Source of the DNA: Erysipelotrichaceae bacterium | GTDB taxonomy: Bacteria; Bacillota_I; Bacilli_A; Erysipelotrichales; Erysipelotrichaceae | Assembly: GCA_017428765.1 (NCBI GenBank) | Contig: JAFRQF010000018.1 | Location: 55,840-119,839, forward strand | Reading direction: 5' to 3' | Length of the DNA stretch: 64,000 nucleotides | Shown here: piece by piece, positions 1,063 through 18,634 of the stretch | Position numbering within the stretch: the first letter of the stretch is position 1 | How the letters are laid out: every line of letters starts with the position of its first letter | Translations under genes and position numbers: made by a program | The notes under the pieces: model-generated | Told to the model about the DNA's origin: nothing | The model's database searches: none | Seen by the model: the letters and a program-made list of their open reading frames with translations, nothing else

Positions 1063-1072
1063 AAAATGCGAA

Positions 1073-1092
1073 GCTCCCGAAAGGGAGTTTTC
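1073..1092 (+). terminator. Rho-independent terminator candidate after the ABC gene
   Basis: Stem CTCCC/GGGAG, GAAA loop, followed by TTTT. Confidence 0.55.
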
Positions 1093-1163
1093 GTTATGTG
1101 CGGGATACCTTTGTTTACTATGAGCGGTTTTTTCTGTCAAAATAAGAAATGGAGGATCTGACT

Positions 1164-1421: not shown

Positions 1422-1426
1422 GCAGA

Positions 1427-2848
1427 ATGAATAAAAACAAGACGGCATCAAATAAGAATATGAAAAGGATCATCCTTGTGGCATTGATCGGCGCAGCATT
1501 GCTGCTAAGTTTTCTTATGCCCTATGCCGTCTTTGACAGAGACAAAGTCATCCTGGAAAAGGGTCAGCAGTATAAGGCGATGGACCTGATCAAGAGGTCC
1601 AATGGCGAAGTCATCCCGGAGGCGGAATATATCGATACGAGTGAAGTCGGCTTTTTTGATTTCACCTATACGCTGAAGCAGTTCTTCTATACAAGAGAGA
1701 CTGTCTTACATTATGAAGTCGTCGATACGACCCCGCCGGACCTTAAGATCATTGCCGATCCGATCCATCTGAAAGCCGATCAATCCTATACGATGGAAGA
1801 CGTATTGAACAACGTTACTTATGACGAAGGAACGATCGAATTTGAAACGGATCTTGATGCCGATTTCCCGGGCACCTATTCGATCAAAGTCACCGCAAAG
1901 GATGATTACGGAAACAAGTCGGAAAAGACATACGGTCTGGTCGTCGATGATACGGAAGCTCCTTTCCTCTTTGTATCCGGTGAATTCATCCGGATCAGGA
2001 AAGGATCGACTTTCAACATCTACGACTACATCGCCTATGGCGACAACGCCGACCGTGACCCGATCTTGGAGATCGACGGCAAAGTCGATACCGACCGCAT
2101 CGGCGAATATCCTCTGAAAGCGTCATTGACCGATAAGGCGGGCAATGTAACGGAATGGGACATCACGGTCAAAGTCGTTAACAAGTTCCCGCAAAACGAT
2201 GACGAGGAGGAAGGCGAAGAGCCGATCGAGTTCAAAGACTTCGTCAAAGAATACAAAAAAGAAGGAAGACGCTTCGGCATAGATGTTTCCGAATGGCAGG
2301 GACAGATCGATTATGAAACTCTGAAGAAGGCAGGATGTGAATTCGTCATGATGCGCATCGGCTTTTCAAGAAACGGCGTCCTGTATCTCGATGACAGTTT
2401 CAAAGAAAACCTGGCCGGGGCAAAGAGCGTCGGCATGCCGATAGGCGTCTACTACTATTCCAACGACAAAAGCGAAGAGGAAGTAAAAAGCGTCCTGCGG
2501 CAGATCATCGCCGAGCTTGGCGATACCCACCTGGAACTTCCGATCGTGTTCGACTGGGAGAATTTCACTTACTTCAATGATTACGGGATCAGCTTCAAAG
2601 ACCTCGATCATCTCTACAACATCTTTGAAGAAGAAGCAAGAAAACAGGGCTACGATACGATGTTGTATGGCAGCAAGTATTACCTGGAAAACATCTGGCG
2701 CCGCACGGACGAAAGAAAGATCTGGCTCGCCCACTACACCGATTGGTCGAGCTACGAAGGAGACTATGTGATGTGGCAGACCTGCGCCTGGGGAAGGGTC
2801 GACGGAGTAGATGCGGATGTCGATCTCGATATCTGGTTCACGGAATAA
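1427..2848 (+). CDS. Membrane-anchored GH25 muramidase (lysozyme) with Ig-like (DUF5011-type) domains
   Basis: N-terminal TM helix. Two 'DTTPP/DDTEAP'-initiated Ig-like modules. C-terminal GH25 pattern FGIDVSEWQG...MMRIG...DVDLDIW. Confidence 0.85.
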   Translation: MNKNKTASNKNMKRIILVALIGAALLLSFLMPYAVFDRDKVILEKGQQYKAMDLIKRSNGEVIPEAEYIDTSEVGFFDFTYTLKQFFYTRETVLHYEVVDTTPPDLKIIADPIHLKADQSYTMEDVLNNVTYDEGTIEFETDLDADFPGTYSIKVTAKDDYGNKSEKTYGLVVDDTEAPFLFVSGEFIRIRKGSTFNIYDYIAYGDNADRDPILEIDGKVDTDRIGEYPLKASLTDKAGNVTEWDITVKVVNKFPQNDDEEEGEEPIEFKDFVKEYKKEGRRFGIDVSEWQGQIDYETLKKAGCEFVMMRIGFSRNGVLYLDDSFKENLAGAKSVGMPIGVYYYSNDKSEEEVKSVLRQIIAELGDTHLELPIVFDWENFTYFNDYGISFKDLDHLYNIFEEEARKQGYDTMLYGSKYYLENIWRRTDERKIWLAHYTDWSSYEGDYVMWQTCAWGRVDGVDADVDLDIWFTE

Positions 2849-2853
2849 AACAA

Positions 2854-2887
2854 GGGTCATGACAGCAAAATGTCATGACCCTTTTGT
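2854..2887. terminator. Strong hairpin terminator, probably bidirectional
   Basis: GGGTCATGAC / GTCATGACCC 10-bp stem with an 8-nt loop. T-rich on the plus side and A-rich upstream, giving a T-run on the minus strand. Lies at the junction between host-like DNA and the AT-rich island. Confidence 0.7.
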
Positions 2888-3039
2888 GTCCTCAGAGCCT
2901 ATAAACGAAACGATAATAAGGAAGTCACACTTAATCAGGAACAATAAATAATTTACGAAGACTTGTTAATTTTTCCTATAAACTATTAAACCATATGAAT
3001 TCATCATCACTATTTAAAATCGATTTGAATTAGTTCTGT

Positions 3040-3354
3040 TTATTTCGTGTCATCAAATAATAAATCCATGTTGTTGTATATACTTACGCCAAAGAGCTTT
3101 TGCAGTTTTTTGTTCAGGTGTAGAATTTCATCTGGTGTTAGATGCTCATTTAGATCTATCAGGAGCTTTTCATATATCTCATAAATTGTATCGTAACTGC
3201 TGAGCAGATCAAGAAGTAATTCAACGCTTTCTCTTGTGCGAGGCAGCATTTCGAGTCTTTTTTGAAACTCATGCCAAGAATTCGGGTCTAGTTCTGCCCT
3301 GTCTTCGTATTCAGAAAGCATCTCACCAAACGATTTTTTATCGTTTTTGTTCAT
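3040..3354 (-). CDS. Hypothetical small acidic, predicted all-helical protein (last gene of the island operon)
   Basis: 104-aa ORF in AT-rich DNA, co-directional with and 37 nt downstream of the preceding gene. No motif recognised. Confidence 0.6.
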   Translation of the reverse strand: MNKNDKKSFGEMLSEYEDRAELDPNSWHEFQKRLEMLPRTRESVELLLDLLSSYDTIYEIYEKLLIDLNEHLTPDEILHLNKKLQKLFGVSIYNNMDLLFDDTK

Positions 3355-3391
3355 CTATTTTTTGGCTTTTTGTTACTGTCTTGTTGGTTGA

Positions 3392-3874
3392 TCAATCAAA
3401 TATGCTGATTATGATTTCACCAGCAGCGGTGGTGATTGTGTAAGCTGCGGGGGCACACGCGAGGAGAACGCCTATAAACCAGAACACTGCAATGAAGGGT
3501 ATCAATTTGCTTAAGAACCCTACCGCAAAGAAAAGGATAACGCTGATTATGGTGCAGAGCGATACCCACAGAATGTTTTTGAAAACACATTCCAATATGT
3601 TGCGGTATTCATCGACCATGGCTATACATATAATGACTGAAGATAAGAAGTCAATGAATAACATGACCGGCACTCCGAAAAGAACAAAGATGTTGTAGGC
3701 AAAGTCCACAATATCATCGTACTGAGCAGATTTTCCATAGGGGAACCAGTAAGCCATTCCATCTGGATCGATTTTGTAAAGCACCAAGAACAGTATTATG
3801 GGAATTGCCGCCATAACAAAGCTGATAAAATACATTAACGTTTTGTTGTCTGATAGTTTTTGATTCTTTTTCAT
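3392..3874 (-). CDS. Hypothetical polytopic membrane protein (about 4 TM)
   Basis: 160 aa with four long hydrophobic segments. Member of the island operon. Confidence 0.7.
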   Translation of the reverse strand: MKKNQKLSDNKTLMYFISFVMAAIPIILFLVLYKIDPDGMAYWFPYGKSAQYDDIVDFAYNIFVLFGVPVMLFIDFLSSVIICIAMVDEYRNILECVFKNILWVSLCTIISVILFFAVGFLSKLIPFIAVFWFIGVLLACAPAAYTITTAAGEIIISIFD

Positions 3875-3947
3875 TTGAGTTATTCCTTTCTTTTGTTAAT
3901 ACTGATAAGTTTTTGTGTACAGTTAAGACTTTGTAATCTGTTCTTCT

Positions 3948-4910
3948 TTAATGGATCCCAGATATCGTTTCGATTTCAAAATCTTCAGGATCAAGATATT
4001 CATTGTCTTCTGTCAGCTCAAAATCGATCAGATTATTAGAAATCAAGATCTTGAAGAATTCTTTGAGTTTACGCCTTTCTGTTTCGTTTCTATGAAAAAT
4101 CAATTCTCCCCTTTCGTATTCGATGCAATTCTCTACGATATCGAGTATGGGAATCTTTATATTCATGCTGCTTGCTGCACTGATCCTGTATAACCGAGAT
4201 TCATCGAAATCCAAACTTTCCTCAACAAAATTACAGACAGCATTTTTGATGTCGTTGTTTTTCCTCGTATCTTCTCTTAAGATTTCAATCTTTTCTTTTG
4301 TCGTCTTATCGTTAATGGGCAATTTGGTAGCCTCGTCAAAGTATATTCTGAGAAACTTTCTAGTCCTATCTCCCTCGTTTTGAAACGGCGTTCCGTCGCT
4401 ATAACCTTTCATTGATTCGTTGATGAAGTAACTGTAATACTTGTATAGCTGATCGTTGATGAATCTGATTGCGCTGTCAACTATCTGTTCGGTCAGATAC
4501 TCCTTGATAGCGAAGGAAAAGCAGAATTCAACTCTTCCGATATTGAAACGGCCATGATCGACATCTCTCTGCGTGATTCTGTTTTTTCCGGCACAGCAAA
4601 TCGGCTCAAAAATGAAACCTGATGTTTTATCCCTTTCTTCTTTCGCGATCGCTTTCGCAAGACGAGATACAGCTTTTACATTACCGGGATATATGGTACA
4701 TATCCTTGTTTCTGAAAAAAGTACAAGCTGCTTTTTTACAAGCTTGAAGTAAAACCTTACATCAAAATAGTCAGGGCCAATCCTTGCATTCAAAGTTTTG
4801 CTTTTGCTTTTTGAATCACATAACGGCTGGATGCAAATATCTTTGATATCATTTCTATTTAAAAGACAGATATGAAGAACGTTCAACGATTCTAATAATT
4901 TAGCATTCAT
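3948..4910 (-). CDS. Hypothetical cytoplasmic protein, no recognisable motif
   Basis: 320-aa ORF in AT-rich DNA, where long ORFs are unlikely by chance. Its start lies 3 nt downstream of the upstream gene's end (4914). Confidence 0.75.
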   Translation of the reverse strand: MNAKLLESLNVLHICLLNRNDIKDICIQPLCDSKSKSKTLNARIGPDYFDVRFYFKLVKKQLVLFSETRICTIYPGNVKAVSRLAKAIAKEERDKTSGFIFEPICCAGKNRITQRDVDHGRFNIGRVEFCFSFAIKEYLTEQIVDSAIRFINDQLYKYYSYFINESMKGYSDGTPFQNEGDRTRKFLRIYFDEATKLPINDKTTKEKIEILREDTRKNNDIKNAVCNFVEESLDFDESRLYRISAASSMNIKIPILDIVENCIEYERGELIFHRNETERRKLKEFFKILISNNLIDFELTEDNEYLDPEDFEIETISGIH

Positions 4911-4913
4911 AAT

Positions 4914-5750
4914 TTAATTACCTTTCTTTAGATTTACACAGATCATCTTGGCCTTCTTTTCGAGAACCAAGAAAACAAGGAACAGCGCAAAAGGAACTTT
5001 GTAAAAACAGAACAAGAGTCTGGAAACAACATCTACAAAGAACTTATCATAGAGCGTTGTTACGACCGTCAAAAGAATCGAGAGCAGTTCTCCGGATAAA
5101 AGAGAGATATAGTAATTCAAGTTATCGATATCAATGAACCGGGCAAGAACAAGAGCTGTAAGAATGATGGTTTCTGCAAAGCACGAAACATCATGAAAGT
5201 AGAAAACACGGTCAGGCAGACTACAAATGTAGATGCCTAAAAGGAAAGATAATGAGCCGTAGAAAGAGAAATGCTTTCCATTTTTATACGCAATTCCGGC
5301 AACGCAAAGAGGCAGTGCTTTGAATAATGCAAACATGTTGGAAGATTGGAACAAATAATATTGGAACTCGATATTGTACTTAAGGCAGTGATAAAGATCT
5401 GAGATAAAATGTGACCCTAAAATAGCAACGCCGGCTAGCAATAGTGCGATGGAACCAGCTAAATGGTAGATTTTTGCCATGCGCTCACTGACCACAAGAG
5501 TTGTAAAATTCTTTTGGTTCATTTCCAGAATTCTGTCTGAAATCAAGGTGTCATGAAGACGTAAAGCTCTTTTGTGGCAAACGCCCAGCCCCCTCATCAA
5601 AGGCACTACAGAATACTTTCCGTGATCCCTGATGATGTATCTTGCATCTTCATAAAACGGATCAACATCCATTTCCGTATCGTCCCGGAACAGGTTCTTA
5701 ATCGAATGTATAATCTTTATGAGTGATCTATAGATACTTTTAATAGTCAT
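4914..5750 (-). CDS. Membrane protein with an N-terminal FtsK-gamma-like winged-helix domain and about 5-6 TM helices
   Basis: aa ~29-77 DPFYEDARYIIRDHGKYSVVPLMRGLGVCHKRALRLHDTLISDRILE aligns by eye with the FtsK gamma pattern D.LY..A...V...GK.S.S.LQR.L.IGY.RA.RL.D.LE..GI. The remainder is hydrophobic. Confidence 0.65.
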   Translation of the reverse strand: MTIKSIYRSLIKIIHSIKNLFRDDTEMDVDPFYEDARYIIRDHGKYSVVPLMRGLGVCHKRALRLHDTLISDRILEMNQKNFTTLVVSERMAKIYHLAGSIALLLAGVAILGSHFISDLYHCLKYNIEFQYYLFQSSNMFALFKALPLCVAGIAYKNGKHFSFYGSLSFLLGIYICSLPDRVFYFHDVSCFAETIILTALVLARFIDIDNLNYYISLLSGELLSILLTVVTTLYDKFFVDVVSRLLFCFYKVPFALFLVFLVLEKKAKMICVNLKKGN

Positions 5751-5785
5751 TTTTTCTCCTTTTATTAATCTTTATAGATTTTGTG

Positions 5786-7081
5786 CTATTGCCTAGGAAC
5801 GCTAACCAAAAACTTTGGTTCAAGCAGCTCCAATCTGACTTCAGAAAGATCGATGGCTGCGCGTTGTCCTTCTTCATTTTCCGAGATAATATAAGCTTTT
5901 TTAATTCTTTGTTTGGCAAAGTTTTTTATTTCGGTGTAACTTTTGCCTTCGTAGTCGATAGAAATTGAGATTCTTTTCTCCTCCCTATCACATTTCACAT
6001 CTGCTGAATCAACATTCGTTTCAAAGGTCTCGCCTTTATTTGTGTAACAGCCAAAAGATTTGATCAAATATCTGTTCAGAAAAACATTTGGCAAGGCAGC
6101 ATGGCAGATGATCTTTGCATAGCACATAAACTCCATCTGGAATAAACTGTGTAAAAGAATTATTGGATCCATGAAATACCTAAGTCTGTAAACACCATAT
6201 GTGCATTCTTTTAGATAATCATCTGTATTCAAGATTTCTTCCTTAAGCACTTTGAGCTGGGTATCTTTTTCCCAGTGTTTCAAAGGATCCGAGTGCTGCA
6301 TCGCTTTGTACCAAAGATATTTTTCAAACCCAGCACTATTTTCGTAGCTGCGTTTGATTCTCTTTTGAACATTCGAATAGTAAAGCTGATCATTTTCAAA
6401 TCTGTTTATTCTTACCGGAAGATTTGCAAGAAGTAACAGCACACTTGGGCAATTGTATTTACCTTCATTCTTACTGGAGATCAAGTTGGATACACAGCAC
6501 GAGTACAGATAATTTTCATTTTTCCTAGAGACAAACGAACCGCCACGAACCGCAAAAACGTATCCTATAAAATCCGCACAGACCATTTGTAAACGTCTTA
6601 TATGCAGATTTGTGATGAGCTGTCGGATCAGTGTGTTTGTAAATCCTTCATCAACGTCGTAATCCATTACTTCTAAAAGAAAAGCGTTATAGAGATGAAG
6701 AGAAAATCGGATGACATTTGGATCATTCGAACGGACGAGATCCAGGATAAAATCCTGAATCTCAGAAATCCGTTTTTGAAGAAAACCATTTCTCTTGTCT
6801 TTGTTTTTTGAAAAAATCAAAAAGATGACAAACCTAGCGATTTCATGAATTTCTTCAGAATATTTTTCGGATAATGAGATGCCACGAAAAACCAGAGACG
6901 AGATCGCTTGCCTTTCTAAATCTTCTTTTCCGTGTGTCTCTTTCCCTTTCTTTTTCAAAGAGCATTGAACATCAATTAATAAATCTCTTGAAAGGCCGTG
7001 CTCATAAGTGATTCTTTTTAAATAAGCTTGATAATTCATAACCGTTCTATCAACGAGCTTATAGCGATGGCTTTTATTCAT
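5786..7081 (-). CDS. Hypothetical cytoplasmic protein, no recognisable motif
   Basis: 431-aa ORF in AT-rich DNA. Overlaps the upstream gene by 8 nt (7074-7081). Confidence 0.75.
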   Translation of the reverse strand: MNKSHRYKLVDRTVMNYQAYLKRITYEHGLSRDLLIDVQCSLKKKGKETHGKEDLERQAISSLVFRGISLSEKYSEEIHEIARFVIFLIFSKNKDKRNGFLQKRISEIQDFILDLVRSNDPNVIRFSLHLYNAFLLEVMDYDVDEGFTNTLIRQLITNLHIRRLQMVCADFIGYVFAVRGGSFVSRKNENYLYSCCVSNLISSKNEGKYNCPSVLLLLANLPVRINRFENDQLYYSNVQKRIKRSYENSAGFEKYLWYKAMQHSDPLKHWEKDTQLKVLKEEILNTDDYLKECTYGVYRLRYFMDPIILLHSLFQMEFMCYAKIICHAALPNVFLNRYLIKSFGCYTNKGETFETNVDSADVKCDREEKRISISIDYEGKSYTEIKNFAKQRIKKAYIISENEEGQRAAIDLSEVRLELLEPKFLVSVPRQ

Positions 7082-8183
7082 CTTTTTCCTCCTCGTATCT
7101 CAGATACATGTCAACAAACTCTGACGAACAGAAGTGTTTACATGTATCATGACGTTGCTTTTCGGTTTGATATCTTTCATCGAACGAGCAGTAATTTTCT
7201 TCATAAAAGGCGCAATAGCAGCAATCCGCTGGGAGAATCATTGTGTTTTTGTTTTCTCCTGCGCACAACGCTTTACGCAGCCGCTGTTCCTGCGGTGTTT
7301 GATTCAGACATTCCCTGATTGTCATATCTTCATAAAACCTTGCGCCACATACTAATCTGATAGCCCTGTCTTTACTGATCTTATAGACCTTTTCTAGTAG
7401 GCCGGCAGGATTTTGATTAACTCTTTTTGCAAACCACCATGCTTTATCGAATAAAGGATCACAGACTATAGTGGATTCCAGATCAGATATGCTGATTTCG
7501 TAATCATCATCAGATGGTTCTTTAGGATCCCACATAATACTCTTCAGTAATAAACATAGATGAAACATGTTCCCGGCTTCTTCGACATTGTTCATATCGA
7601 ATCCTGAGAGGTCGATTGCTCTAAGCTTTTTGCACCCTTCAAACAAAGAGGTCATGATCTTAACGTTAAAAGCGTTGCGTGGCAGGATTAAGTCAGAAAG
7701 ATGTATGCAGCCTGCGAATAGAAAGCTAATATCTTCCTGTTCGCTTATATCTAATCCGGACAAGTTGATCATTTTGTATGACTTTTTTCTCGAATCCCTT
7801 AAATGCAAGCCGGCAGCAGTATCTTCATAAGTAAGGAGCTTTAGGATATCGCGAGGTGGCTTGATTTTCTGAAACGGTGTATCTGCGGTTACATACACAT
7901 CAATTAAAGAATCTGAAGCGAACGAGATATAACATTTGATTTCTCCGGAAAGAAAATCGCCTATGTCTTCGATCATCAGATCATATGACTCGCTATAAGG
8001 CTGATCTGCTATTGTCAGATTTATGAAATAGTCATCTATGCAAATAGCTTGATCTTCTCTTTGAAGCTCTCTTTGAATCGCTGCTTCAAGATAGTATTGA
8101 AAAGAAAGAGAGATCCTGAAGTTTACCTTTCTTTTTTCATTGAGATCATCTAAATACTCATTCATATCTTTCAATTCCTTCAT
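7074..8183 (-). CDS. Cytoplasmic DUF285/BspA-type leucine-rich-repeat protein with a Cys-rich C-terminal tail
   Basis: Three repeats of the DUF285 type (e.g. DLSGFDMNNVEEAGNMFHLCLLLKSI). No signal peptide. Seven Cys between aa 307 and 352 (C-x13-CC-x-C-x7-C-x15-C-x3-C). The start may be the Met at 8165 (ATGAATGA overlap with the upstream stop). Confidence 0.7.
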   Translation of the reverse strand: MKELKDMNEYLDDLNEKRKVNFRISLSFQYYLEAAIQRELQREDQAICIDDYFINLTIADQPYSESYDLMIEDIGDFLSGEIKCYISFASDSLIDVYVTADTPFQKIKPPRDILKLLTYEDTAAGLHLRDSRKKSYKMINLSGLDISEQEDISFLFAGCIHLSDLILPRNAFNVKIMTSLFEGCKKLRAIDLSGFDMNNVEEAGNMFHLCLLLKSIMWDPKEPSDDDYEISISDLESTIVCDPLFDKAWWFAKRVNQNPAGLLEKVYKISKDRAIRLVCGARFYEDMTIRECLNQTPQEQRLRKALCAGENKNTMILPADCCYCAFYEENYCSFDERYQTEKQRHDTCKHFCSSEFVDMYLRYEEEKDE

Positions 8184-9510
8184 GAATTGTGATGTTGTTC
8201 CGCATAAACTCGGTTGATTCCAAACTGATCTCCTTTGAGTTTGAAAAGGATCTGCTGTTTTCTGGCAAAGGCTCTGTCGGATTCAGATAAACCCACCGAC
8301 TTTCATTTCCGTCCCTAAAAGTGTAGTGATCCGTGCTTACGTTTTGGATACACCAATCTGTAATTGCAGATTCCCAGGGATCCTCGATCAGATTTCCGTT
8401 ACTGTTACCATGCAAAATGATCATGTTTTCTTCGTCGATCACATCTATAACAAAAGCAACTGTGCCATACGGATGATTGCTGGTGGGCAAGGCTGATGCA
8501 ATAGAGCCGGCAGCCGGTGTGCTGGATTTGTGCCATCCAGGCATGTCACTGTTATTGACCCAATTTCCACCATTACCATGAGTATTAACAGAGACTCCCA
8601 GCTGCGTAAGAATTCCATAACAAAACCAAGTACACTGGCCGAAGTCATATGGATTAAACGGGTGTTCCCAGGCTTTTCTAACAGAAAAATCAGGAAGAAA
8701 CGAACGCATAGGATCTGTTATCAAATAGCTTCCACTGATTTGAGACAGAAGATAAGATGATTTTTCATAACTTTTAGAAAGGGACCCTGCATCACAATTG
8801 TTTTTATTAAAGATAGATCCCTCAATATTTACCTTTTGATACTCGCCATAAGATACCAGAGATTTTCCTGTCGTTGCGTAAGGGCGAATGTAGTAAATCC
8901 CCTGTTTCAATTCACCAAAACGATCGGCTGTTTCAAAGGCAACATAATTCAAATCACTGAGATTCTTGATACTTCTATAGACGCTTCCCAAGAAACCGTT
9001 TTCTTCATCAAACAGTAAATACCCACATCCGTCAGCCTCGTTAATGCCTTGATCGATATCATAGGAAATAAATGCCCCTCCCTCATATCCTTCGCTTTTC
9101 AAATTGTTAATTGAAGCATAAGTAGACAGAGGGCTGACGACTACTTTTGGCCCTTCTGTCAATTCGTTTTCTATTTCGATAAAAGGAATCAAAACATATT
9201 GTTTGTTTTCATCAAACGCCATTGTCGAATCAGACATGCGTATTTGTTCCTTATAAAGCTCAGAAATACTGTGTGTTTTATAAACCTTATATTGTCCCCC
9301 GGAACAGTTAATTAAGAGCCCTGATTTCAATGTTCCCGAATAAGAATCCACGGAAACATCAAAACTGATGGCGAAATCCTTGTTGGCTTTATCAATTTCG
9401 ATTACTACGTTTGAAATTTCGGATCTCTTAACGGATTCCGCAAATACACTTTCTATTTGTAAAGAAGACAGACAGATTACAGCAATCAGAAGCATAAGAA
9501 TTCTTTTCAT
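8158..9510 (-). CDS. Secreted protein with beta-rich repeat modules and a C-terminal CHAP-like domain
   Basis: Signal peptide MKRILMLLIAVICLSSLQIESVFA|E. The CHAP pattern FGQCTWF...GNGGNW...PAAGSIA...YGTVAFV is present. The canonical GHV histidine position reads GTV. Confidence 0.8.
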   Translation of the reverse strand: MKRILMLLIAVICLSSLQIESVFAESVKRSEISNVVIEIDKANKDFAISFDVSVDSYSGTLKSGLLINCSGGQYKVYKTHSISELYKEQIRMSDSTMAFDENKQYVLIPFIEIENELTEGPKVVVSPLSTYASINNLKSEGYEGGAFISYDIDQGINEADGCGYLLFDEENGFLGSVYRSIKNLSDLNYVAFETADRFGELKQGIYYIRPYATTGKSLVSYGEYQKVNIEGSIFNKNNCDAGSLSKSYEKSSYLLSQISGSYLITDPMRSFLPDFSVRKAWEHPFNPYDFGQCTWFCYGILTQLGVSVNTHGNGGNWVNNSDMPGWHKSSTPAAGSIASALPTSNHPYGTVAFVIDVIDEENMIILHGNSNGNLIEDPWESAITDWCIQNVSTDHYTFRDGNESRWVYLNPTEPLPENSRSFSNSKEISLESTEFMRNNITIHEGIERYE

Positions 9511-9592
9511 AACAGACCTTCTTTCTCGTTCGCGTAGAAGAACTTATCGGCGTTTCCGCCTCCAGACTGATCTGAAGGCGGAACATAAGCGC

Positions 9593-10933
9593 TCAGTTTT
9601 GGTGCCATGATGAAATGAAATTATAGGTTTGTGTGTATCCGTTTCCATCGTCGTGTTGAAACTGAAATGTGTTTGAGTCGTAGTCGATTTTCCATCGGTA
9701 ACTAGTGACAAACACCCTTCCTCCGCCATCGGACGTTGTGGCTTCTAATACATCGAGTTTTCCATCCGACTTAATGTCACGAATGAACAGCCAGTGATCG
9801 CTTCCACCTGTTTTATGAAGCTTTACTACGTCATACTTTCTTATGTTTGAAATATTTGTATTTGTCCTTCCGTTTCGATAACTCTGGTTGAATACGACCC
9901 GAGAAAGATCAAGAGTATAGGCACAGCAGCCCCAGGCGTTAAAAATGGGATTAGTATAAGATTTTCTGCCTCCCCATTTAGCACCATCTTCCCATTTAGG
10001 GTTTCTAAGGAATGCGTTAATTCTTCCTTCTGTTGTTGAAATTTTTATCTCGATAGGAATTCTGTTGCTGTAACGGACCTGACCACCGCTCACAACATAG
10101 GCTTGCGCATAATAGTCCCCAGGCCACAAAACAGCTTTTTCATAATACTTGGCTGTATCGTAGGAAGCACTGAAGTTTCCCGAATAATTGAGCCCTGAGT
10201 CGTTTCCGCCGCCGATTTTTGAGCCGTTGCTGTCAAAAAGCTCAAAACCGCATTCGTTAGCTTTGTACGATGTTCCTTGACTTACTTTGAAAGAGAAAGT
10301 GAAACGGGAATCATCGATTGATACTGAAACAGAATAAGGGATAGCGTATTCGCTTGGCGTTGAAACAGTATATTTCTGACCGTAAAACATCTGCCCGCTT
10401 TGTGTTTTGACATAGTTTTGAACGGTATAGCTGGTCCCTTCCGTTACTGTCAATCCGTACTTTGACATAAGGTAGGATGAACCCAGCACGTGACTGTTTG
10501 CCAATTCACTGCCTTTTAAATCGTCATAGAAGTTATAAGATGTAGTAGGTCCTATCACGATGGTTCCAACACGTTCCAACAAAACTCTCCCTGGATTATC
10601 AACTCTGAAATTAACCTTAAAATCAGTTGAAGAAAGGTCTGTCGTATCTTTGTTTGTAACAACAGGTACTTTAGATTCCATCTTGTTGGGCGAATTAATT
10701 TGAACAAACAAGTTGGAAGATGAATTGCCATTCAGCGTCAGTTTTGCATCCACCATGGTTTTCTTCTGATTATTGTTGAGAAGATAACCGGTAGAAGGAG
10801 TGTGATCTCCACCTTCTTCGGCGTTTACGACTTCGCTGTTGCAGGTGATCATGCCAAAAAGCATTAAAACCACCAAAAACAATGAGACGACCCTTTCTAA
10901 CGAAAAGGTACTTTTATTGCTTATCATTTCCAT
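9593..10933 (-). CDS. Secreted protein with beta-rich repeat modules and a C-terminal papain-fold (NlpC/P60- or CHAP-like) domain
   Basis: AGGAGG RBS. Signal peptide ending VVNA|EE. C-terminus WGCCAYT ... YDVVKL ... SDHWLFI ... VLEATT fits a Cys-His-acid papain-like arrangement. Modules are paralogous to those in 8158..9510. Confidence 0.7.
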   Translation of the reverse strand: MEMISNKSTFSLERVVSLFLVVLMLFGMITCNSEVVNAEEGGDHTPSTGYLLNNNQKKTMVDAKLTLNGNSSSNLFVQINSPNKMESKVPVVTNKDTTDLSSTDFKVNFRVDNPGRVLLERVGTIVIGPTTSYNFYDDLKGSELANSHVLGSSYLMSKYGLTVTEGTSYTVQNYVKTQSGQMFYGQKYTVSTPSEYAIPYSVSVSIDDSRFTFSFKVSQGTSYKANECGFELFDSNGSKIGGGNDSGLNYSGNFSASYDTAKYYEKAVLWPGDYYAQAYVVSGGQVRYSNRIPIEIKISTTEGRINAFLRNPKWEDGAKWGGRKSYTNPIFNAWGCCAYTLDLSRVVFNQSYRNGRTNTNISNIRKYDVVKLHKTGGSDHWLFIRDIKSDGKLDVLEATTSDGGGRVFVTSYRWKIDYDSNTFQFQHDDGNGYTQTYNFISSWHQN

Positions 10934-10962
10934 TTTTTCCTCCTTACCCTTCGGGCATTTTC

Positions 10963-11000
10963 ATAATAGAAGTTCAATGTTGTGGAAAAAGTTGTGGAAA
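10963..11000 (-). promoter_or_regulatory. Candidate activator-dependent promoter of the island operon: -10 TATTAT plus tandem direct repeat GTTGTGGAAA x2
   Basis: On the minus strand TATTAT lies at 10968..10963. GTTGTGGAAA occurs at 10979-10988 and 10991-11000 (12-nt period), covering about -23 to -44. No TTGACA-like -35 is present there. Confidence 0.45.
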
Positions 11001-11037
11001 TTGATAACTTTTAATGCTTTTGTTTTTTTACAGGCTT

Positions 11038-11067
11038 TTGATTCTTTGCTTTGTATTCTGGTAATAA
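11038..11067 (+). promoter_or_regulatory. Candidate sigma-A-type promoter for the STAND gene
   Basis: TTGATT, 18-nt spacer, TAATAA, with TG just upstream of the -10. Confidence 0.3.
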
Positions 11068-11141
11068 TGAAAGATATTGGAATTCAAAGAACAGAGATGA
11101 AAAGGCACAGGAGAAAACAAATTTTCATTTAAAATGAAATT

Positions 11142-14100
11142 ATGGATAAAATAACCGTTTGTTTTAACAAAGGTAAGGATAATGAAGTGACTGTCGATTT
11201 TGAAAAAAACAGAGTTTTTGGCAAGAACAACAGCCTGCTTGAGTTTGAAGTTGAAAAAACTAGAACGGTTAAAAATGAAGACGGAAAGATAGTTAAAGAA
11301 AAGACTGGCGAAAAGAGCAAAGATGCAGTACGTTCCCTTCAAGATAAACCATACGCCTTTTTGCTTGCGGCGGTTAAACACTACAGTTTAGGCACAGTAA
11401 CGATTGATCAAATACGTGAAGAGTATAAGATGCAAACCGGTAACGAAATGGGCGACCACATCATCAAATGTAAAGACTTGAGAGATATCAAATCAAAGAT
11501 CGGAAAGATTATTAAATATCCCGAGTTTTTAACAGCGCATGACACGTATTATGAATGGAACAAGAATTCACAAGATTTTTCCATATCTATTGAAAATAAT
11601 GGTTCGTTTTCGTTGTTAAAGTCATTCGTTTCCGATCCCTCGGAATTAATGAATTATGTAGAACCCGATCAATTAAAAGAGATAGAAGATGATTTTTTAA
11701 CAAATAAATTTCCTGTCCACATCATTTCTGCAGAGCATGGTATGGGTAAGACTTTGTTAGCGAAAAAACTAATTTCGAATCTTTATAATTGGAATGTTTT
11801 CTATTCTGTTTATAAGGATAATCTTGAAGAAACGGTATGTTCGCTTGCCACTTCTTCTGAAGAAAACAAGAAACCAATTTTTTCAGATGTTATTGCGCTT
11901 TTAAATGACGAAACTGGTGATAAAAAATACAGAGATGTGATCTCTTTTCTAGAGCACGAATACTATGATAAAGAAAGCATCAGAGATGCAATTTTATCGC
12001 TGAAACGTGATGCCAATACTAAAAAACGAAATGTACTGCTTGTAATAGACAATTATGATTCGGATCGATTTGAAAATGAACTAACGCAGGAGAACAGATC
12101 GTATCAGGCTCTTCTTGATACCGGAATTAATATACTTATCACCACGACCGCCAATATGGAAGGAGCATGGAAATCAAAGCAGATGATTTTGAAACCGCTG
12201 AACGAAGATAAACGATACGAATTGTTTGTCAGCTCTTTACCGAAAAGAAAAAAGAAAGATTACGAAGAAAAAGAAACTATCCTCTCTTTTATTGACAAAT
12301 ATCTGAAAAACAACACCTATCTGATTGCTTTAGCTGCCAGGTTGTCAGAGTACTATAGCATTGACGAGATTTCTTCATCAATTGCAGATTATGACAGCAA
12401 AAAACGCAGTCCGGTTTTATCGGATCCTATCGCTGGAAAAAATGAAGCGGACAAAGATTCGTTGTTTGGTCATTTTTACTCGCTTTTCAGACTTTCTCTT
12501 GAAAAAATGCCAGATAAAGAAACGGCCCATAAGATTCTTTATAACTTGGCTGCAATGCCGGTAGAAGGTCTCGCAAAAGATTTATTTGTAGATCTTTCCT
12601 TTTCTATAGAGGAACAAAATAATGGCTACCTGATAATGTTGGAACGACTATGCAGAAATTATTGGGTGACAGAGGAAAAAAGAGGGAAAGAAGACAGACT
12701 GATGCTTCACCCGATGGTCAGACTGATTGTTACTAAAAAGATCGATTACCAGGAAGGCTATCTTACTTTTCTCTTAAAAAAACTAAGTAATTCTACAGTA
12801 AATATTTCAGCATATAACGATCGTTTTCCGGAATTTTTAGACTTTACCTTATCTTTGAACATGCTACTAAAAGAGAGGAGAATTTGCGATAAAAATGACC
12901 TCGTTTTATTAAGTGCCGGAATCATTTCGCTTTGTGATATAATCAGCGACTCCAATAAAGTTGAGGAGTTAGCCGATACGACATATGAAGGTCTAAACAA
13001 TATCAATTTAGCAAAAGAAGAAGACAAGGTATTGTATGCAAACGCGATGAATGTTGTGGGCTACGCCCTCTTGCATACTGAGAACATAGAGGAAAATCTT
13101 GAAAAGGCAACAAGGTTACTTGATAAAGCGGAAAAGCTGCTTGATGGAAATGAAGATGAGGAAAGTAAAACGGTTTTATCAAAAATAAAAGGAAATAAAG
13201 CTGCTTATTATATGAAAATACAAGACTGGCAAACGATGTACGAAACACACGAAGCCAATTACTTTTTCAGACAGACATTAAAAGGTAGCAATAAAGATGA
13301 ATTGTGCGGTGCAAGTCTTCGAGGAATGGCGACAGCCATGTATTATCAGGCTAAAGAAGCCGAAGAAAACGGCCATATAGGGACTGCTGCAGAAAAGTTT
13401 TTAAACTCTTACAAAACTCATAAAGCGGCGTATAAATACTTTCATTCTGCCCAATTGGAATTGGAACAGGCTATTACAGTGATCCGCAGATCCGGAACTT
13501 TTCTTAATTGGTTAAAATGCTTGGATGAAAAGAAAAAACATCAAAGCAATGTTCAGGATGTCTTTATAAAAGAACTCGGCGATTTGGAGGGCGTCTTGGA
13601 TTATCTGAGCGTACGTATGAAAAAACGAGATGAAAAGGAAACCGCTAATTGTAAAGACACAATAAGTTCCTTTATCGATACAGGCATTCGTCTTAATTAT
13701 CCTCTTCCAAAATATATAAAAGAAAAAGCCGGATGGACAGCAAACCCTTTTACTTGTCCGGATTCATCGCTAAGCACAGAAGAGCGTCGCAGGCTGATTT
13801 TAGACAGATTTAACAACTGGCTCTCAAAAGAAGAATTGGCAGATCTGTTTAAAGAGTCTTCTTTTAAATATGATGCAAAAAGCGAATTCGATAAAAAAAT
13901 ATCATTCTTTAAACACGAGTCTTTCAACTCTTTATGGGATTACAGAAAAGAAAAAGAAACAGGAGAGATAAAGGAACGAGGACAGATCAGAAAAGAAAAA
14001 GACAAAGAGATTCCTTTGGAAATAAAGACAAAAGCTTTTATAGCTGCCCAAGCGTTGAATCTTATAGGAGTCCAGGACTCTCAATTTGAAAACGTAGACT

Positions 14101-14708
14101 ATATACTTCCATTAGGTGGTGGAGGCATATCGAACCTTAAGCGATGTGAGCTTGCAAATAGAGAATTTGTTCGATTAAAAAGAAAACCTGAAGTTGTGGC
14201 TTTATCAACGTCGCGCCTAATAGACTTTGATAGAGCCGACACAGATACATTTGCACCAAATGCGCAAACCGAGTTTGATGCAATATCAGAAGGCATGAAG
14301 AAAGCCTTTGGTGCCAGAAAACATGAAGAAGAGTTGTCGGAACATGACGCCAAGATTATCAGACTGGAGACAGACAATAAAGAAGATCGGCTGTTTGTTA
14401 CATCGTGCCCTTCGTCTGATCCCAATAGAAGAGCTGATACAAACGATAATTATCGTTATTTCTTTTCTCAATTCAAAGTAAATAAAGGGGCAAAAATAAT
14501 CTGTTGCACTGGACAGGTATATTGCACGTATCAGCAAGCAGTGGCTCTTAAATATGCGTGCAAGTACAACGTAGAGATTGATACGATCGGTTTTTCTTCT
14601 TCAAAGAAAGCTCTGGCGATCGATTATCTTATGGAGATAAAGAAAACGATATTAGCGATCATTGATTTTGTTGATGAGATCAACGTCTACGCAAAGAATC
14701 TACCCTGA
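11142..14708 (+). CDS. STAND (NB-ARC-like) P-loop NTPase with an N-terminal OmpR/SARP-like winged helix, TPR-like repeats and a C-terminal DUF218/YdcF-like domain
   Basis: Walker A AEHGMGKTLLAKK (aa ~197-209), Walker B VLLVIDNYD (aa ~298-306), ILITTT, and KPLNEDKRYELF, as in NB-ARC. N-terminus has KPYAFLLAAVKHYSLGTVTIDQIREEY ... LRDIKSKIGKII...HDTYYEW, like trans_reg_C. C-terminus has YILPLGGGG...TEFDAISEGM...RADTNDNY...IICCTGQVYCTYQQA, like DUF218. Confidence 0.8.
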   Translation: MDKITVCFNKGKDNEVTVDFEKNRVFGKNNSLLEFEVEKTRTVKNEDGKIVKEKTGEKSKDAVRSLQDKPYAFLLAAVKHYSLGTVTIDQIREEYKMQTGNEMGDHIIKCKDLRDIKSKIGKIIKYPEFLTAHDTYYEWNKNSQDFSISIENNGSFSLLKSFVSDPSELMNYVEPDQLKEIEDDFLTNKFPVHIISAEHGMGKTLLAKKLISNLYNWNVFYSVYKDNLEETVCSLATSSEENKKPIFSDVIALLNDETGDKKYRDVISFLEHEYYDKESIRDAILSLKRDANTKKRNVLLVIDNYDSDRFENELTQENRSYQALLDTGINILITTTANMEGAWKSKQMILKPLNEDKRYELFVSSLPKRKKKDYEEKETILSFIDKYLKNNTYLIALAARLSEYYSIDEISSSIADYDSKKRSPVLSDPIAGKNEADKDSLFGHFYSLFRLSLEKMPDKETAHKILYNLAAMPVEGLAKDLFVDLSFSIEEQNNGYLIMLERLCRNYWVTEEKRGKEDRLMLHPMVRLIVTKKIDYQEGYLTFLLKKLSNSTVNISAYNDRFPEFLDFTLSLNMLLKERRICDKNDLVLLSAGIISLCDIISDSNKVEELADTTYEGLNNINLAKEEDKVLYANAMNVVGYALLHTENIEENLEKATRLLDKAEKLLDGNEDEESKTVLSKIKGNKAAYYMKIQDWQTMYETHEANYFFRQTLKGSNKDELCGASLRGMATAMYYQAKEAEENGHIGTAAEKFLNSYKTHKAAYKYFHSAQLELEQAITVIRRSGTFLNWLKCLDEKKKHQSNVQDVFIKELGDLEGVLDYLSVRMKKRDEKETANCKDTISSFIDTGIRLNYPLPKYIKEKAGWTANPFTCPDSSLSTEERRRLILDRFNNWLSKEELADLFKESSFKYDAKSEFDKKISFFKHESFNSLWDYRKEKETGEIKERGQIRKEKDKEIPLEIKTKAFIAAQALNLIGVQDSQFENVDYILPLGGGGISNLKRCELANREFVRLKRKPEVVALSTSRLIDFDRADTDTFAPNAQTEFDAISEGMKKAFGARKHEEELSEHDAKIIRLETDNKEDRLFVTSCPSSDPNRRADTNDNYRYFFSQFKVNKGAKIICCTGQVYCTYQQAVALKYACKYNVEIDTIGFSSSKKALAIDYLMEIKKTILAIIDFVDEINVYAKNLP

Positions 14709-14755
14709 AACGCAATTATTAAAGACGCCTTACGAAACGGCAAAAGAAAATAATA

Positions 14756-15070
14756 TTAGTCTTTGTGAGCGACCTCGGCGTACGCGTGATTGGAAGGATG
14801 ATATTGGATCATCACTTCTTCGTCTTTCTTCAATCCCTTCGCTCCGCGAAGCAGTGCTTTTCTTTCCGCATTGTTTTCATCGAGATAATTCACATAAAAG
14901 GTATACGATGTGTTTCCGGTATCGTCATCATAATTCTCATCGATGCGCGATATCCTCCCTTTTGTTGTGATGCCTTCTTTTGCGATCCTTGTATGATGTA
15001 TCAGGTTGTAAATGATGATAACTGCCGCAATAAGGATCAATAGTATCCAGAAAAGGATCCCTTTATTCAT
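14756..15070 (-). CDS. DUF3592-like small membrane-anchored protein
   Basis: N-terminal TM helix followed by the pattern G.ISRI...Y.FYVNY...G..V.IQYHP.N, typical of DUF3592. Composition is closer to the host flank. Confidence 0.6.
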   Translation of the reverse strand: MNKGILFWILLILIAAVIIIYNLIHHTRIAKEGITTKGRISRIDENYDDDTGNTSYTFYVNYLDENNAERKALLRGAKGLKKDEEVMIQYHPSNHAYAEVAHKD

Positions 15071-15232
15071 ATGCTGTACTTCACTCCTTTTTCACTAAGA
15101 CCAATTATAGATGTTTTTTTATGAAGAGTTCCGATCTTTCAGGAGTATGCATACAGGGATCATTTGAATAAAGGTCCGTTATGGGGCAAGAGACGATAGA
15201 AATCGCATCAGATATGATACATTGCATTTGAA

Positions 15233-15543
15233 ATGAAACTGCTTTACGTTTAAGCAAGGAAGCCTTACGCTACCGCTATCTGTATCTGGTCGCGATCCTA
15301 TCGACTCTGTCTTTGACCTGTGTCAACCTGGCGGCACCCAGGGTGCTTTCAAGGATGACCGGTATCGTCTCGGCAGGCGTAGATGAAGCAGGTCTTTTAC
15401 AGATCCGTCAGCTTACGATGATCCTGGTCATCGAAAGCGGTGAGATCAGAAAATCCGGTACCCATGATGAACTGCTGAAGATGAACGGCATCTATGCAAG
15501 GATGGATAAGATACAGAATTCCGCGCAGGAAAAAGGTATTTAA
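15233..15543 (+). pseudogene. Remnant of an ABC exporter gene (frameshifted start, large internal deletion)
   Basis: The ATG at 15233 runs MKLLYV* in frame 2. Frame 1 then reads LRLSKEALRYRYLYLVAILSTLSLTCVNLAAP (typical ABC-exporter TM1 region), joined directly to ILVIESGEIRKSGTHDELLKMNGIYARM (extreme NBD C-terminus; compare [29 protein letters not shown] in 1..1062). About 500 aa of an intact exporter are missing. Confidence 0.65.
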
Positions 15544-15654
15544 ATACATATACGATCACTCAACGGCCCCGCAATGCGGGGTCTTTCTTATGGGATATTT
15601 CCTTCTTTTGTGGCCTGTGTCATAATGAAATTAACAAAGAGAGGTAATCATAAT

Positions 15655-16290
15655 ATGTTTGTCTTCTGGGGAGACGGCTCTGCGGAAGCAAAGGATCTTG
15701 TTGATGCGATCCTCGTGCGGAGCACGGCGAATTTCAATTGGACGTTCATCTTTATTCTGTCCGTCGTTTTTTATGTATACTGGACAGAAGTCAAAAACAA
15801 AGACTATAAGGCCATCGTCGCCGGATTCTCATTATATGGCGTACATTGGCTCTATGAGATCGGCAATGCGATCATCGCTCATTTTGCGGGCTATCCGTTA
15901 TGGGCGGTGTCCAATGCCTCAACGACCTTCATACTGCTGATCGGGGTGTGCTGGGAACTGTCGATGATGTTTTCTCTGGCCGGCATCATTTCCTATAAGA
16001 TGCTTCCCAAGAAACCGGACAAGAAACGCAAATTTCTGTCGGCATTAGCTATGGCGGCACTGTTTGCCTTAGTCGAATCCTTCCTGGCGGGAACGGAAAA
16101 CCATTCCTTCATCTGGGTCTATAAATGGTGGGGCGTATTGCCGGTATTCGTTACGACCTATATCCCTTTCTTCCTTGCCAGCAACTTCGTGCCTTACTGG
16201 AAGCAGAAGGAACAGATCACATTCTTGAGCGTCGTATGGGGCGCCGCAGCTGTTCTGCTTATAACACTCATCCCGTTAGGGATCATATAA
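15655..16290 (+). CDS. Hypothetical polytopic membrane protein
   Basis: AAGAGAGG RBS about 9 nt upstream of the ATG at 15655 (the ORF track starts earlier, at 15574). About 6 hydrophobic helices. Followed closely by the Ldh_2 gene. Confidence 0.65.
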   Translation: MFVFWGDGSAEAKDLVDAILVRSTANFNWTFIFILSVVFYVYWTEVKNKDYKAIVAGFSLYGVHWLYEIGNAIIAHFAGYPLWAVSNASTTFILLIGVCWELSMMFSLAGIISYKMLPKKPDKKRKFLSALAMAALFALVESFLAGTENHSFIWVYKWWGVLPVFVTTYIPFFLASNFVPYWKQKEQITFLSVVWGAAAVLLITLIPLGII

Positions 16291-16305
16291 AACAGGAGGA
16301 ATATC

Positions 16306-18596: not shown

Positions 18597-18608
18597 GAAA
18601 TAAAAACG

Positions 18609-18634
18609 AAAGGAGATGCGTTCTCCTTTCTTTT
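18609..18634 (+). terminator. Rho-independent terminator after the malic enzyme gene
   Basis: AAAGGAGA / TCTCCTTT stem followed by a CTTTT run. Confidence 0.65.

Follow-up and report, generated by a model that had tools for sequence, protein, structure and literature searches.

The stretch of DNA analysed here, 64,000 nucleotides (nt) of contig JAFRQF010000018.1 from an Erysipelotrichaceae bacterium (called the window below), contains an inserted island in which the gene for a large STAND-type nucleoside triphosphatase (NTPase) is transcribed divergently from an operon of eight genes. Our preferred reading, to which we give a probability of roughly 0.4, is that the island arrived by horizontal transfer, varies between strains, diversifies rapidly and works as a conflict module, with the STAND protein turning on an operon directed at the envelope. 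Its role would probably be either defence against phages and mobile elements or antagonism between strains. The gene set was compared across four locus types, all of which come from rumen metagenomes, and the evidence is computational throughout. The island and its features are as follows, in window coordinates.

2897-14744, no strand: inserted island, 11,848 bp, defined by alignment with an empty site and by the shift in base composition, overall and at third codon positions, and in k-mer usage
11142-14708, plus strand: 1188-residue STAND-type NTPase with C-terminal Rv3785_N fusion, divergent from the operon
11739-12059, plus strand: NTPase core from Walker A to Walker B (regular expressions and invariant columns of alignment A13)
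13743-14708, plus strand: Rv3785_N (PF27209) alpha/beta domain, residues 868-1188 (321 residues)
10934-11141: divergent intergenic region, 208 nt, between the gene for the 1188-residue protein and the operon
9593-10933, minus strand: 446-residue exported protein, first gene of the operon, with an N-terminal hydrophobic signal or anchor (hydropathy)
8158-9510, minus strand: 450-residue Sec-signal protein with CHAP domain (hydropathy, Pfam)
7074-8183, minus strand: 369-residue cytoplasmic DUF285/BspA-type leucine-rich repeat (LRR) protein with acidic C-terminus
5786-7081, minus strand: 431-residue orphan protein, no family match
4914-5750, minus strand: 278-residue membrane protein with cytoplasmic N-terminus and about five transmembrane segments (hydropathy)
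3948-4910, minus strand: 320-residue orphan cytoplasmic protein with acidic C-terminus
3392-3874, minus strand: 160-residue protein with four transmembrane segments (hydropathy)
3040-3354, minus strand: 104-residue acidic helical protein

Composition, borders and relatives of the island

The island is a compositionally foreign, strain-variable insertion relative to a related strain. A first-pass annotation, made from the letters alone, had described an AT-rich island of about 12 kb, and the shift persists when windowed composition is computed. The content of guanine plus cytosine (GC) is 0.377 in the island and 0.482 in the remainder of the 64-kb window, the windowed values being close to 0.48 outside and falling sharply to 0.37-0.40 over the stretch from roughly 3.0 to 14.7 kb, and every other 11.8-kb stretch of the window outside the island has a GC content of at least 0.466. 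The tetranucleotide distance from background is 0.37-0.46 in the island and 0.12-0.21 elsewhere in the window, and GC at third codon positions (GC3) is 0.35-0.50 in the island genes and 0.59-0.69 in the flanking genes. The related loci described below have a GC content of 0.38-0.39, like the island, which suggests a donor lineage of lower GC.

The borders were obtained from L033, a contig of 245 kb belonging to a related strain, in which the genes that flank the island on the left and right enclose an empty site. Using blastn, L033 aligns contiguously to window positions 1-2896 (98.2% identity) and 14745-24719 (97.1%), with a 3-nt overlap, and therefore the insert is 2897-14744, within about 10 nt of the limits proposed earlier (2890 and 14755). 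The presence or absence between strains, which the first-pass annotation had raised as a check, is thus seen at the exact site. The trinucleotide AGA occurs on either side of the insert (2894-2896 and 14745-14747), and the junction alignment against L033 contains no repeat longer than this 3-bp microhomology. A search for att-like flanking direct repeats at the island borders was negative. Neither the island nor its borders hold a transfer RNA (tRNA) gene, the only one in the window being tRNA-Pro(GGG) at 22530-22606. None of the island proteins matched an integrase, transposase or phage family in Pfam, NCBIfam, PHROGs or PADLOC, in agreement with the first-pass description of the borders. A scan of the island against Rfam gave no match.

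All nine open reading frames (ORFs) of the island are intact and tightly coupled, and the coordinates of the overlaps and gap reported for them were reproduced. The overlap at 8158/8183 is 26 nt (8 nt with an alternative start), that at 7074/7081 is 8 nt, and the gap at 4910/4914 is 3 nt.

Comparison with three further locus types, here called L023, L029 and L013/L030, shows that the gene set is both co-conserved and mosaic. Co-occurrence of the nine genes elsewhere had been raised as a check, and L023 has homologues of all nine (23-54% identity), while L029 and L013/L030 have most of them. In L023 the NTPase and the Rv3785_N domain are encoded by two overlapping genes, the pair of genes corresponding to the two exported proteins (the CHAP pair) is divergent from the others, and there are a few extra small genes. 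L029, a JGI contig, is of the L023 type in its left half (92-95% nucleotide identity) and differs from L023 in its right half, where its versions of the 278- and 320-residue proteins are 52% and 45% identical to those of the window. L013/L030 is of the L023 type in its right half, with 97.6% nucleotide identity over 3.6 kb only, and has a window-like version of the 431-residue protein. The genes occur in rearranged orientation across L023, L029 and L013/L030, and proteins in the same position are only 23-55% identical. L030 and L029 share a right flank, and therefore represent alternative cassettes at one chromosomal site. The invariant core, by comparison of these loci, is made up of the DUF285 protein with its cysteine tail, the 431-residue protein, the polytopic membrane protein, the 320-residue protein, the 104-residue domain and the protein with four transmembrane segments.

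Additional genes lie in or beside two of these loci. Inside the operon of L029 there is a fusion of Tpt1/KptA (RNA 2'-phosphotransferase-like) and microbial PARG (13513-14757), and beside it a BspA LRR_5 protein (14773-16206) whose C-terminal approximately 100 residues are homologous to the 104-residue protein. A weak DUF3846 match adjoins the same locus. Next to the L030 locus (1-4532) are an RtcB RNA ligase, a small HTH_3 protein, a radical-SAM protein followed by a 37-residue ORF, and a 263-residue orphan. The large divergent gene of L013 was considered as a diverged STAND homologue, and this was rejected: BLASTP and hhalign were negative and its 1208-residue product has no Walker A motif. 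The C-terminus of this product gave an hhalign probability of 14.8% against the Rv3785_N profile.

The gene set is rare. No relative of it was found in 185,579 species-representative genomes (GTDB), and a scan of IMG/VR with four island protein families found no relatives. Two island proteins each were compared by tblastn with INPHARED phages and PLSDB plasmids, giving only generic CHAP or LRR similarity or nothing. These searches, together with the library scans, reveal no homology to a prophage or to an integrative and conjugative element (ICE), which the first-pass annotation had named as a possible explanation that would overturn its own.

The 1188-residue protein and the operon that it faces

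The 1188-residue protein (NCBI name hypothetical protein IJK53_05630) is a STAND-type NTPase, as judged from its motifs, from weak Pfam matches and from an hhalign comparison. The Walker A motif GMGKT occupies residues 200-204 (nt 11739-11753; the lysine is K203) and the Walker B motif LLVIDNYD occupies residues 299-306 (nt 12036-12059). Beyond Walker B come LITTT, LxPLxxDKxxELF and NTYLIxLAA, which when matched by eye resemble the RNBS-B, RNBS-C and GLPL motifs of NB-ARC proteins; LITTT and NTYLIxLAA are invariant across three homologues. The Pfam matches are to AAA_22, NACHT, nSTAND3, NPHP3_N and AAA_16, all of them below threshold, with no model over its cut-off. The hhalign comparison is with a Trans_reg_C-AAA_16-TPR protein of locus L034, and gives a probability of 100% (E 1.8e-45) over about 630 columns. 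Closer homologues, encoded by two genes in each case, are 35% identical in L023 and 52% in L029. A k-mer protein search gave no match, and PADLOC also gave none, the L023 homologue having only a 17.8-bit match to TRIP13.

The divergent STAND gene had been recognized in the first-pass annotation, which missed the C-terminal domain. A profile search with this domain found 33 proteins (E 1e-158 to 1e-18), of which 31 were already annotated as PF27209. The C-terminal 321 residues align end to end with the 33 members at 25-53% identity, and their alignment (A3) has 20 invariant columns, including LPLGG, R, E and TS..Y..Q. Most members of the family are free-standing proteins of 315-340 residues, in contrast to the window, where it forms one protein with a STAND NTPase. 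AlphaFold2 predicted the structure of the domain with a mean predicted local distance difference test score (pLDDT) of 91.7. Comparison of the model with the PDB using Foldseek found no significant neighbour (best TM-score about 0.2), and comparison with BFVD found weak neighbours only, namely a DUF218 phage protein (E 0.013, TMt 0.51) and a SLOG domain. Given that the neighbours are weak, the domain is best described as a predicted Rossmann-like core that is otherwise unplaced. An assignment as DUF218/YdcF-like was rejected, because a Pfam scan of 32 family members found no DUF218 and the PDB has no fold match. Sequence-profile searches of the PDB with the STAND and Rv3785_N families were negative. 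Papers that mention Rv3785 assign it no function and name it only in surveys of resistance and variation.

Two identities were sought for the N-terminus. An OmpR-type winged helix was rejected, with hhalign probabilities of less than 1% against PhoB and OmpR sequences and against three Trans_reg_C domains of L034. A fused effector domain (nuclease, protease, TIR, SIR2 and so on) was searched for with Pfam, in the N-terminal 170 residues up to E 10, with nothing meaningful found.

Other loci show how the NTPase and Rv3785_N are combined elsewhere. L034 (ERZ28660814 scaffold_493, 3040-16291) encodes an 853-residue Trans_reg_C-STAND-TPR protein with an N-terminal OmpR-type Trans_reg_C domain (44 bits), followed by an overlapping Rv3785_N gene that is split into 147 and 218 residues. 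Downstream are genes for an FtsK_SpoIIIE-like protein of 1032 residues, JAB, a ThiF/E1-like protein, proteins of 71 and 89 residues, a NucA/NucB-like protein and a transglutaminase-core protein; the FtsK-like, JAB and E1-like genes match the PADLOC models SspH/mad8, JAB and E1-E2. Since this homologue has a Trans_reg_C domain, the clade includes predicted DNA-binding STAND proteins that head conflict-type operons. Upstream of it lie two further Trans_reg_C proteins, one of which is fused to FHA. In L035 the order is Trans_reg_C, a 197-residue gene, a TPR gene and then Rv3785_N. L026 (ERZ27274634 k141_375406, 469-11069) has a 1118-residue Ser/Thr kinase directly followed by a free-standing Rv3785_N and then by Band7, vWA, PP2C and transglutaminase-core genes, a further setting of signalling and conflict type, and one Rv3785_N homologue stands alone among housekeeping genes.

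In four of these loci the NTPase or TPR gene overlaps the Rv3785_N gene by 8-23 nt in a different frame, at the following positions.

L023, 5630-5649: NTPase/Rv3785_N overlap
L029, 6289-6308: NTPase/Rv3785_N overlap
L034, 5579-5601: NTPase/Rv3785_N overlap
L035, 8001-8008: TPR/Rv3785_N overlap

The occurrence of the two parts as a fusion in the window and as separate overlapping genes elsewhere argues that they are a functional pair. The overlaps may reflect translational coupling or, possibly, a frameshift. In L023 and L029 the NTPase genes probably start farther downstream than annotated, as a GTG start giving VNKIICI fits the MDKITVCF of the window.

In the divergent region between the two transcription units the 10-nt sequence GTTGTGGAAA occurs twice as an exact direct repeat (10979-10988 and 10991-11000), with a period of 12 nt. 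The copies precede the first operon gene by 46-67 nt, and the exact sequence occurs nowhere else in the 64 kb; 75 of 5000 shuffles (1.5%) reach the window repeat. L023 has a different exact 10-nt repeat in the same relative place, with a period of 11 nt (0.3% of shuffles), so that both loci have such repeats, of differing sequence, at 46-87 nt before the first secreted-protein gene. The GTTGTGGAAA repeats are a candidate operator.

The first two genes of the operon encode the exported proteins, for which a paralogous Sec-signal pair with papain-fold C-termini had been proposed. The paralogy holds at the N-terminus: an N-terminal stretch of about 190 residues is homologous between the two families (hhalign 97.8%, E 9e-13), and the beta-rich domain at about residues 100-297 of the 446-residue protein is common to both. 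The papain fold holds for the 450-residue protein, which the Pfam match proves to carry a CHAP domain (PF05257; residues 286-369, nt 8404-8655; 51 bits, cut-off 26), predicted to be a peptidoglycan peptidase. Cys293 and His346 are invariant (alignment A9), NCBIfam gives domain-level matches to PcsB and amidase models, and the L023 homologue is 54% identical. For the 446-residue protein the fold is unproven. Its C-terminal domain has an invariant GCC...H and has no match in Pfam or among PDB sequences, nor does hhalign align it to CHAP, so a papain-fold C-terminus was rejected here as having no sequence evidence from these three comparisons. The L023 homologue of this protein is 35% identical. 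In some contigs a 33-residue ORF spans the end of the 446-residue gene and the start of the 450-residue gene (window about 9507-9608, minus strand; L001 8366-8467).

The remaining products are cytoplasmic or membrane proteins. The 369-residue protein is as first described, a cytoplasmic DUF285-LRR protein with a cysteine tail: DUF285 (PF03382) scores 28.9 bits (cut-off 25), hydropathy reveals no signal peptide, and the tail CCxC...C...HDTC...C (nt 7116-7235) has invariant cysteines and histidine (alignment A4). Homologues are 53% (L023) and 31% (L013) identical, and a 363-residue version bears the NCBI name BspA family LRR protein. The 431-residue protein, which had been called unrecognizable along with the 320-residue protein, again has no family match. 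A full HMMER pass found only two other clusters among 1.84 billion representatives, corresponding to a single homologue at 55% identity on L013/L030 (P0003) and a distant match on L023 (P0004). A sequence-profile search of the PDB was negative. Structure prediction had been suggested as a way forward for this protein, and did not help. The AlphaFold2 model (pLDDT 61.8) has an all-alpha ARM-like part (residues 1-315) and a beta domain (residues 320-423), and Foldseek returned generic matches only (clostridial alpha-toxin with TM 0.15, ARM repeats and alpha+beta matches), which do not count because the model is too uncertain.

The 278-residue protein had been described as an FtsK-gamma-like winged helix-turn-helix fused to a polytopic membrane domain. 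The membrane part stands, with its five or so predicted segments, and is 52% identical in L029 and 25% in L023 and L013, but the match of residues 29-79 to FtsK_gamma (PF09397) is below the Pfam cut-off of 30.6 bits (21.3 bits for the whole protein, 25.7 for the isolated segment). FtsK-gamma-like domains were also considered in the 369-residue protein, in P0004 and in a 195-residue protein, and rejected: Pfam was negative, and hhalign gave 4.9% for the 369-residue protein and 0.2% for P0004. The 320-residue protein has no match to any family or PDB sequence; its homologues in L029 (45% identical) and in L023 and L013 (23%) have the same position in the operon. The 160-residue protein, whose four transmembrane segments had been seen at first pass, is 30% identical to the product of the terminal 145-residue gene of L023, and a gene of similar size also terminates the operons of L030-L032. 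The 104-residue protein is 35-38% identical to 115-residue proteins of L013 and L023, and by tblastn corresponds to the C-terminus of the L029 BspA-LRR protein (15925-16200, E 8e-9). None of the 431-, 320- and 104-residue proteins has a match of any weight to a family or to PADLOC or PHROG models, and six of the nine island proteins match no curated family over its cut-off. In some population variants three products are shorter, at 309 or 363 residues in place of 369, 417 in place of 431 and 419 in place of 446, which may reflect either start-site calls or real lesions.

The proposed switch and its alternatives

In the mechanism that we propose, the 1188-residue protein would be a signal-gated switch, whose helical TPR-like region and Rv3785_N domain would sense a ligand or a protein. 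NTP-dependent activation would then turn on the divergent eight-gene operon, most likely at the level of transcription and by way of the GTTGTGGAAA repeats. The products, which may work as one assembly, would be an envelope-directed output. The cytoplasmic part of this would consist of repeat or adaptor proteins (the DUF285-LRR protein with its Zn-type cysteine tail, the ARM-like 431-residue protein and the 320- and 104-residue proteins), and the envelope part of the two membrane proteins and the two exported, putatively wall-targeting proteins, of which at least one is a predicted CHAP peptidoglycan peptidase.

The switch is probably transcriptional because the sole recognizable enzymatic output is Sec-exported, and such enzymes should be within reach of a cytoplasmic switch only through their expression or through membrane partners. 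The first-pass annotation had called the STAND protein a regulator, and this gains indirect support from the DNA-binding homologue in L034 and from the 10-nt repeat; it is the homologue, rather than the window protein itself, from which the transcriptional step would follow by analogy. A conflict role is preferred to a housekeeping one because of the presence or absence of the island in sister strains, its mosaicism, its conflict-type accessory genes and the like character of the sister operons.

Several observations weigh against this reading. Pfam, up to E 10, finds no DNA-binding domain in the N-terminal 150 residues of the 1188-residue protein. The statistics of the repeat are modest, the second copy in L029 is degenerate, and L013 has no comparable repeat. 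No toxin-like effector is recognizable in the window version, and a PADLOC scan of ten window proteins gave nothing meaningful, the only row being a 14-bit match of Drt8 to the 104-residue protein. L013/L030 keeps the core of the operon without an adjacent CHAP pair, so that the pair of wall hydrolases, which had been seen as a component of the system and is present in L023, is absent there; and its large divergent gene encodes a 1208-residue TPR protein without Walker A. Since this type lacks both the CHAP pair and the NTPase, neither is obligatory. Finally, the whole case stands on four locus types.

A more specific version of the proposal would make the island an undescribed class of conflict system, in which a STAND-Rv3785_N switch controls exported peptidases and membrane proteins directed by LRR/ARM-type proteins, giving altruistic lysis or kin-discriminating killing with a specificity set by cassette exchange. 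This version is speculative, and we regard it as doubtful. If the general proposal is true, an envelope-directed multi-gene output joins the repertoire of STAND-controlled conflict systems. The comparisons also tie the uncharacterized Rv3785_N domain, with its namesake in Mycobacterium tuberculosis, to large signalling proteins at the head of conflict-type operons. The two sister rumen strains, which differ by exactly the 11.85-kb insert, are a natural experiment. The impact is limited by the distribution: the set was seen only in a few lineages from rumen metagenomes, and never in a cultured or species-representative genome.

Three roles had been suggested at first pass, namely a bacteriolysin locus, abortive infection and envelope remodelling. 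None is demonstrated; the comparisons lean towards conflict and away from housekeeping remodelling of the envelope. Comparisons with defence, bacteriocin, phage and ICE systems were negative, in keeping with the earlier statement that no described system has this composition, and nothing was found in the literature on the combination of STAND, CHAP and DUF285. In the features that could be compared at the sequence level, the island does not belong with the Avs, SARP, bacteriocin or phage/ICE modules.

The nearest described kinds are STAND transcription regulators, antiviral STAND proteins and NTP-dependent conflict systems known from computation. Like the island, systems with the STAND regulators AfsR, MalT and GutR pair a target operon with a divergently encoded, large and signal-integrating STAND NTPase whose C-terminal region is helical or made of TPRs. 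The short direct repeats with a period of 11-12 nt upstream of the island operon, as a candidate operator, may be a further resemblance to SARP/AfsR systems. SARPs have an N-terminal OmpR-type winged helix, as does the L034 homologue, whereas the window protein has no detectable winged helix or BTAD. The targets of AfsR, MalT and GutR are antibiotic synthesis or sugar catabolism, to which the island operon is unrelated, and we know of no C-terminal Rv3785_N domain in regulators of this type.

The first alternative is a bacteriolysin or competition locus, in which class-III-like lysins kill relatives, the other proteins provide immunity, export and maturation, and the STAND protein gates the system. 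Like the class III bacteriocins of the zoocin A and enterolysin A type, the island has an exported wall hydrolase with a second, non-catalytic domain in a strain-variable locus: the 450-residue protein combines a Sec signal with CHAP, and the N-terminal domain of about 190 residues common to the exported pair fits a targeting module. Allelic diversification and presence or absence are typical of antagonism loci, and the operon contains two polytopic membrane proteins. However, the hydrolase pair is dispensable, as it is missing beside the L013/L030 type where all the other operon genes are kept, and the catalytic domain is C-terminal, unlike in the class III bacteriocins. Among the nine proteins Pfam and NCBIfam find neither a known type of lysin-immunity protein, FemABX-like or other, nor an ABC exporter or a leader peptidase. 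The operon is mostly cytoplasmic repeat proteins, which would be superfluous in a lysin locus, seven further conserved genes have no explanation, and the peptidase nature of the 446-residue protein is unproven. We consider this alternative unlikely.

A second alternative, which seems to us decidedly improbable, is Avs-like abortive infection without a transcriptional step. Here the STAND protein would sense a phage protein through its C-terminal half, oligomerize and directly activate the cytoplasmic and membrane proteins, and once these had breached the membrane the pre-made hydrolases would lyse the cell. Like Avs and bNACHT systems, the island encodes a STAND NTPase with a long, helical region that resembles a sensor; the NTPase has NB-ARC-like motifs, and the island behaves as a foreign, strain-variable accessory island with mosaicism and strong allelic diversification. 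Characterized Avs are single proteins, with an effector domain fused to the STAND module (in line with PMC13581612). By contrast, the island has no PADLOC match to Avs or bNACHT and no known effector domain, its eight operon genes are co-conserved, the N-terminus of the STAND protein has no recognizable effector, and its closest clear homologue has a DNA-binding domain in that place. The replacement of the protein in L013 by one lacking the P-loop is also difficult to reconcile with this scheme.

There is a computational precedent for STAND-linked peptidoglycan effectors. Kaur, Burroughs, Iyer and Aravind (2020, PMC7159879, section 32) described NTP-dependent conflict systems, among them operons in which a STAND component accompanies lysozyme or papain-like peptidoglycan effectors linked to EAD1, the EAD1/lysozyme type being found mostly in alphaproteobacteria. 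These systems resemble the island in being multi-gene operons with a STAND or other NTPase and variable effectors, some of them predicted to attack peptidoglycan, and the sister operons described above, with their JAB/E1, vWA-PP2C-kinase and transglutaminase parts, are of the kind catalogued there. They differ from it in that the window genes have no NucA or trypsin core (Pfam), that the host of the island is one of the Firmicutes of the rumen, and that its hydrolases are Sec-exported.

Equally improbable, in our view, is a third alternative, a regulated envelope or surface module with no part in conflict, for example an apparatus for LRR assembly or export in which the peptidases open the wall locally and the 104-residue protein is a targeting factor or chaperone. 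A domain like the 104-residue protein does end the LRR_5 protein of L029, DUF285/BspA proteins are usually at the surface (to judge from NCBI names), and the combination of translational coupling with membrane proteins and wall peptidases points to an assembly of fixed stoichiometry. Yet Pfam, NCBIfam and PADLOC find no secretion ATPase or known translocon component, the DUF285 protein of the window lacks a signal peptide, the sister strain does without the island, which is extremely rare, and the accessory Tpt1-PARG fusion and the JAB/E1 sister operons indicate conflict.

Finally, a decaying remnant of an ICE or prophage, whose genes no longer cooperate, might explain the foreign composition, the insertion without a recombinase, the occurrence of CHAP also in phage lysins and conjugation hydrolases (with phage-record matches that are weak and at the level of the CHAP domain) and the weak DUF3846 match beside L029, but is very hard to sustain when the nine ORFs are intact and tightly coupled, the set is conserved in four locus types, scans of IMG/VR with four island protein families and of INPHARED and PLSDB with two island proteins each yield at most generic CHAP or LRR similarity, and no structural, replication, type IV secretion system, integrase or holin gene is found among the island proteins in Pfam, NCBIfam, PHROG or PADLOC.

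Flanking genes and other features of the window

Three features adjoin the island and lie outside it.

1427-2848: left neighbour, a GH25 muramidase that carries Big_13 and Ig-like surface domains and, at its N-terminus, a hydrophobic segment
2852-2883, no strand: bidirectional terminator hairpin in the flank, present also in the empty site
14756-15070, minus strand: small membrane-protein gene in the right flank, which crosses the junction in L033

The hairpin had been taken as the edge of the island, but belongs to the flank, being the terminator of the empty site. The immediate neighbours had been given as an ABC gene and an ABC remnant; they are in fact the muramidase gene on the left and the small membrane-protein gene on the right, and the ABC transporter genes lie farther left than the muramidase gene. 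The right-flank membrane protein has 120 residues in L033 and 104 in the window, the insertion having replaced the 3' end of its gene. The GH25 gene has a host-like GC content and is also present in the empty-site strain, and for these reasons its adjacency to the CHAP genes looks coincidental.

Elsewhere in the window there are milder dips in GC content at 20500-21500, 34000-36000 and 46000-50000 (0.436-0.446, compared to about 0.48), the first of which is adjoined by the tRNA-Pro(GGG) gene. A malK-I RNA (Rfam RF03069) occurs near the right end of the window at 63827-63974, with a score of 95.9 bits (gathering score 60.3).

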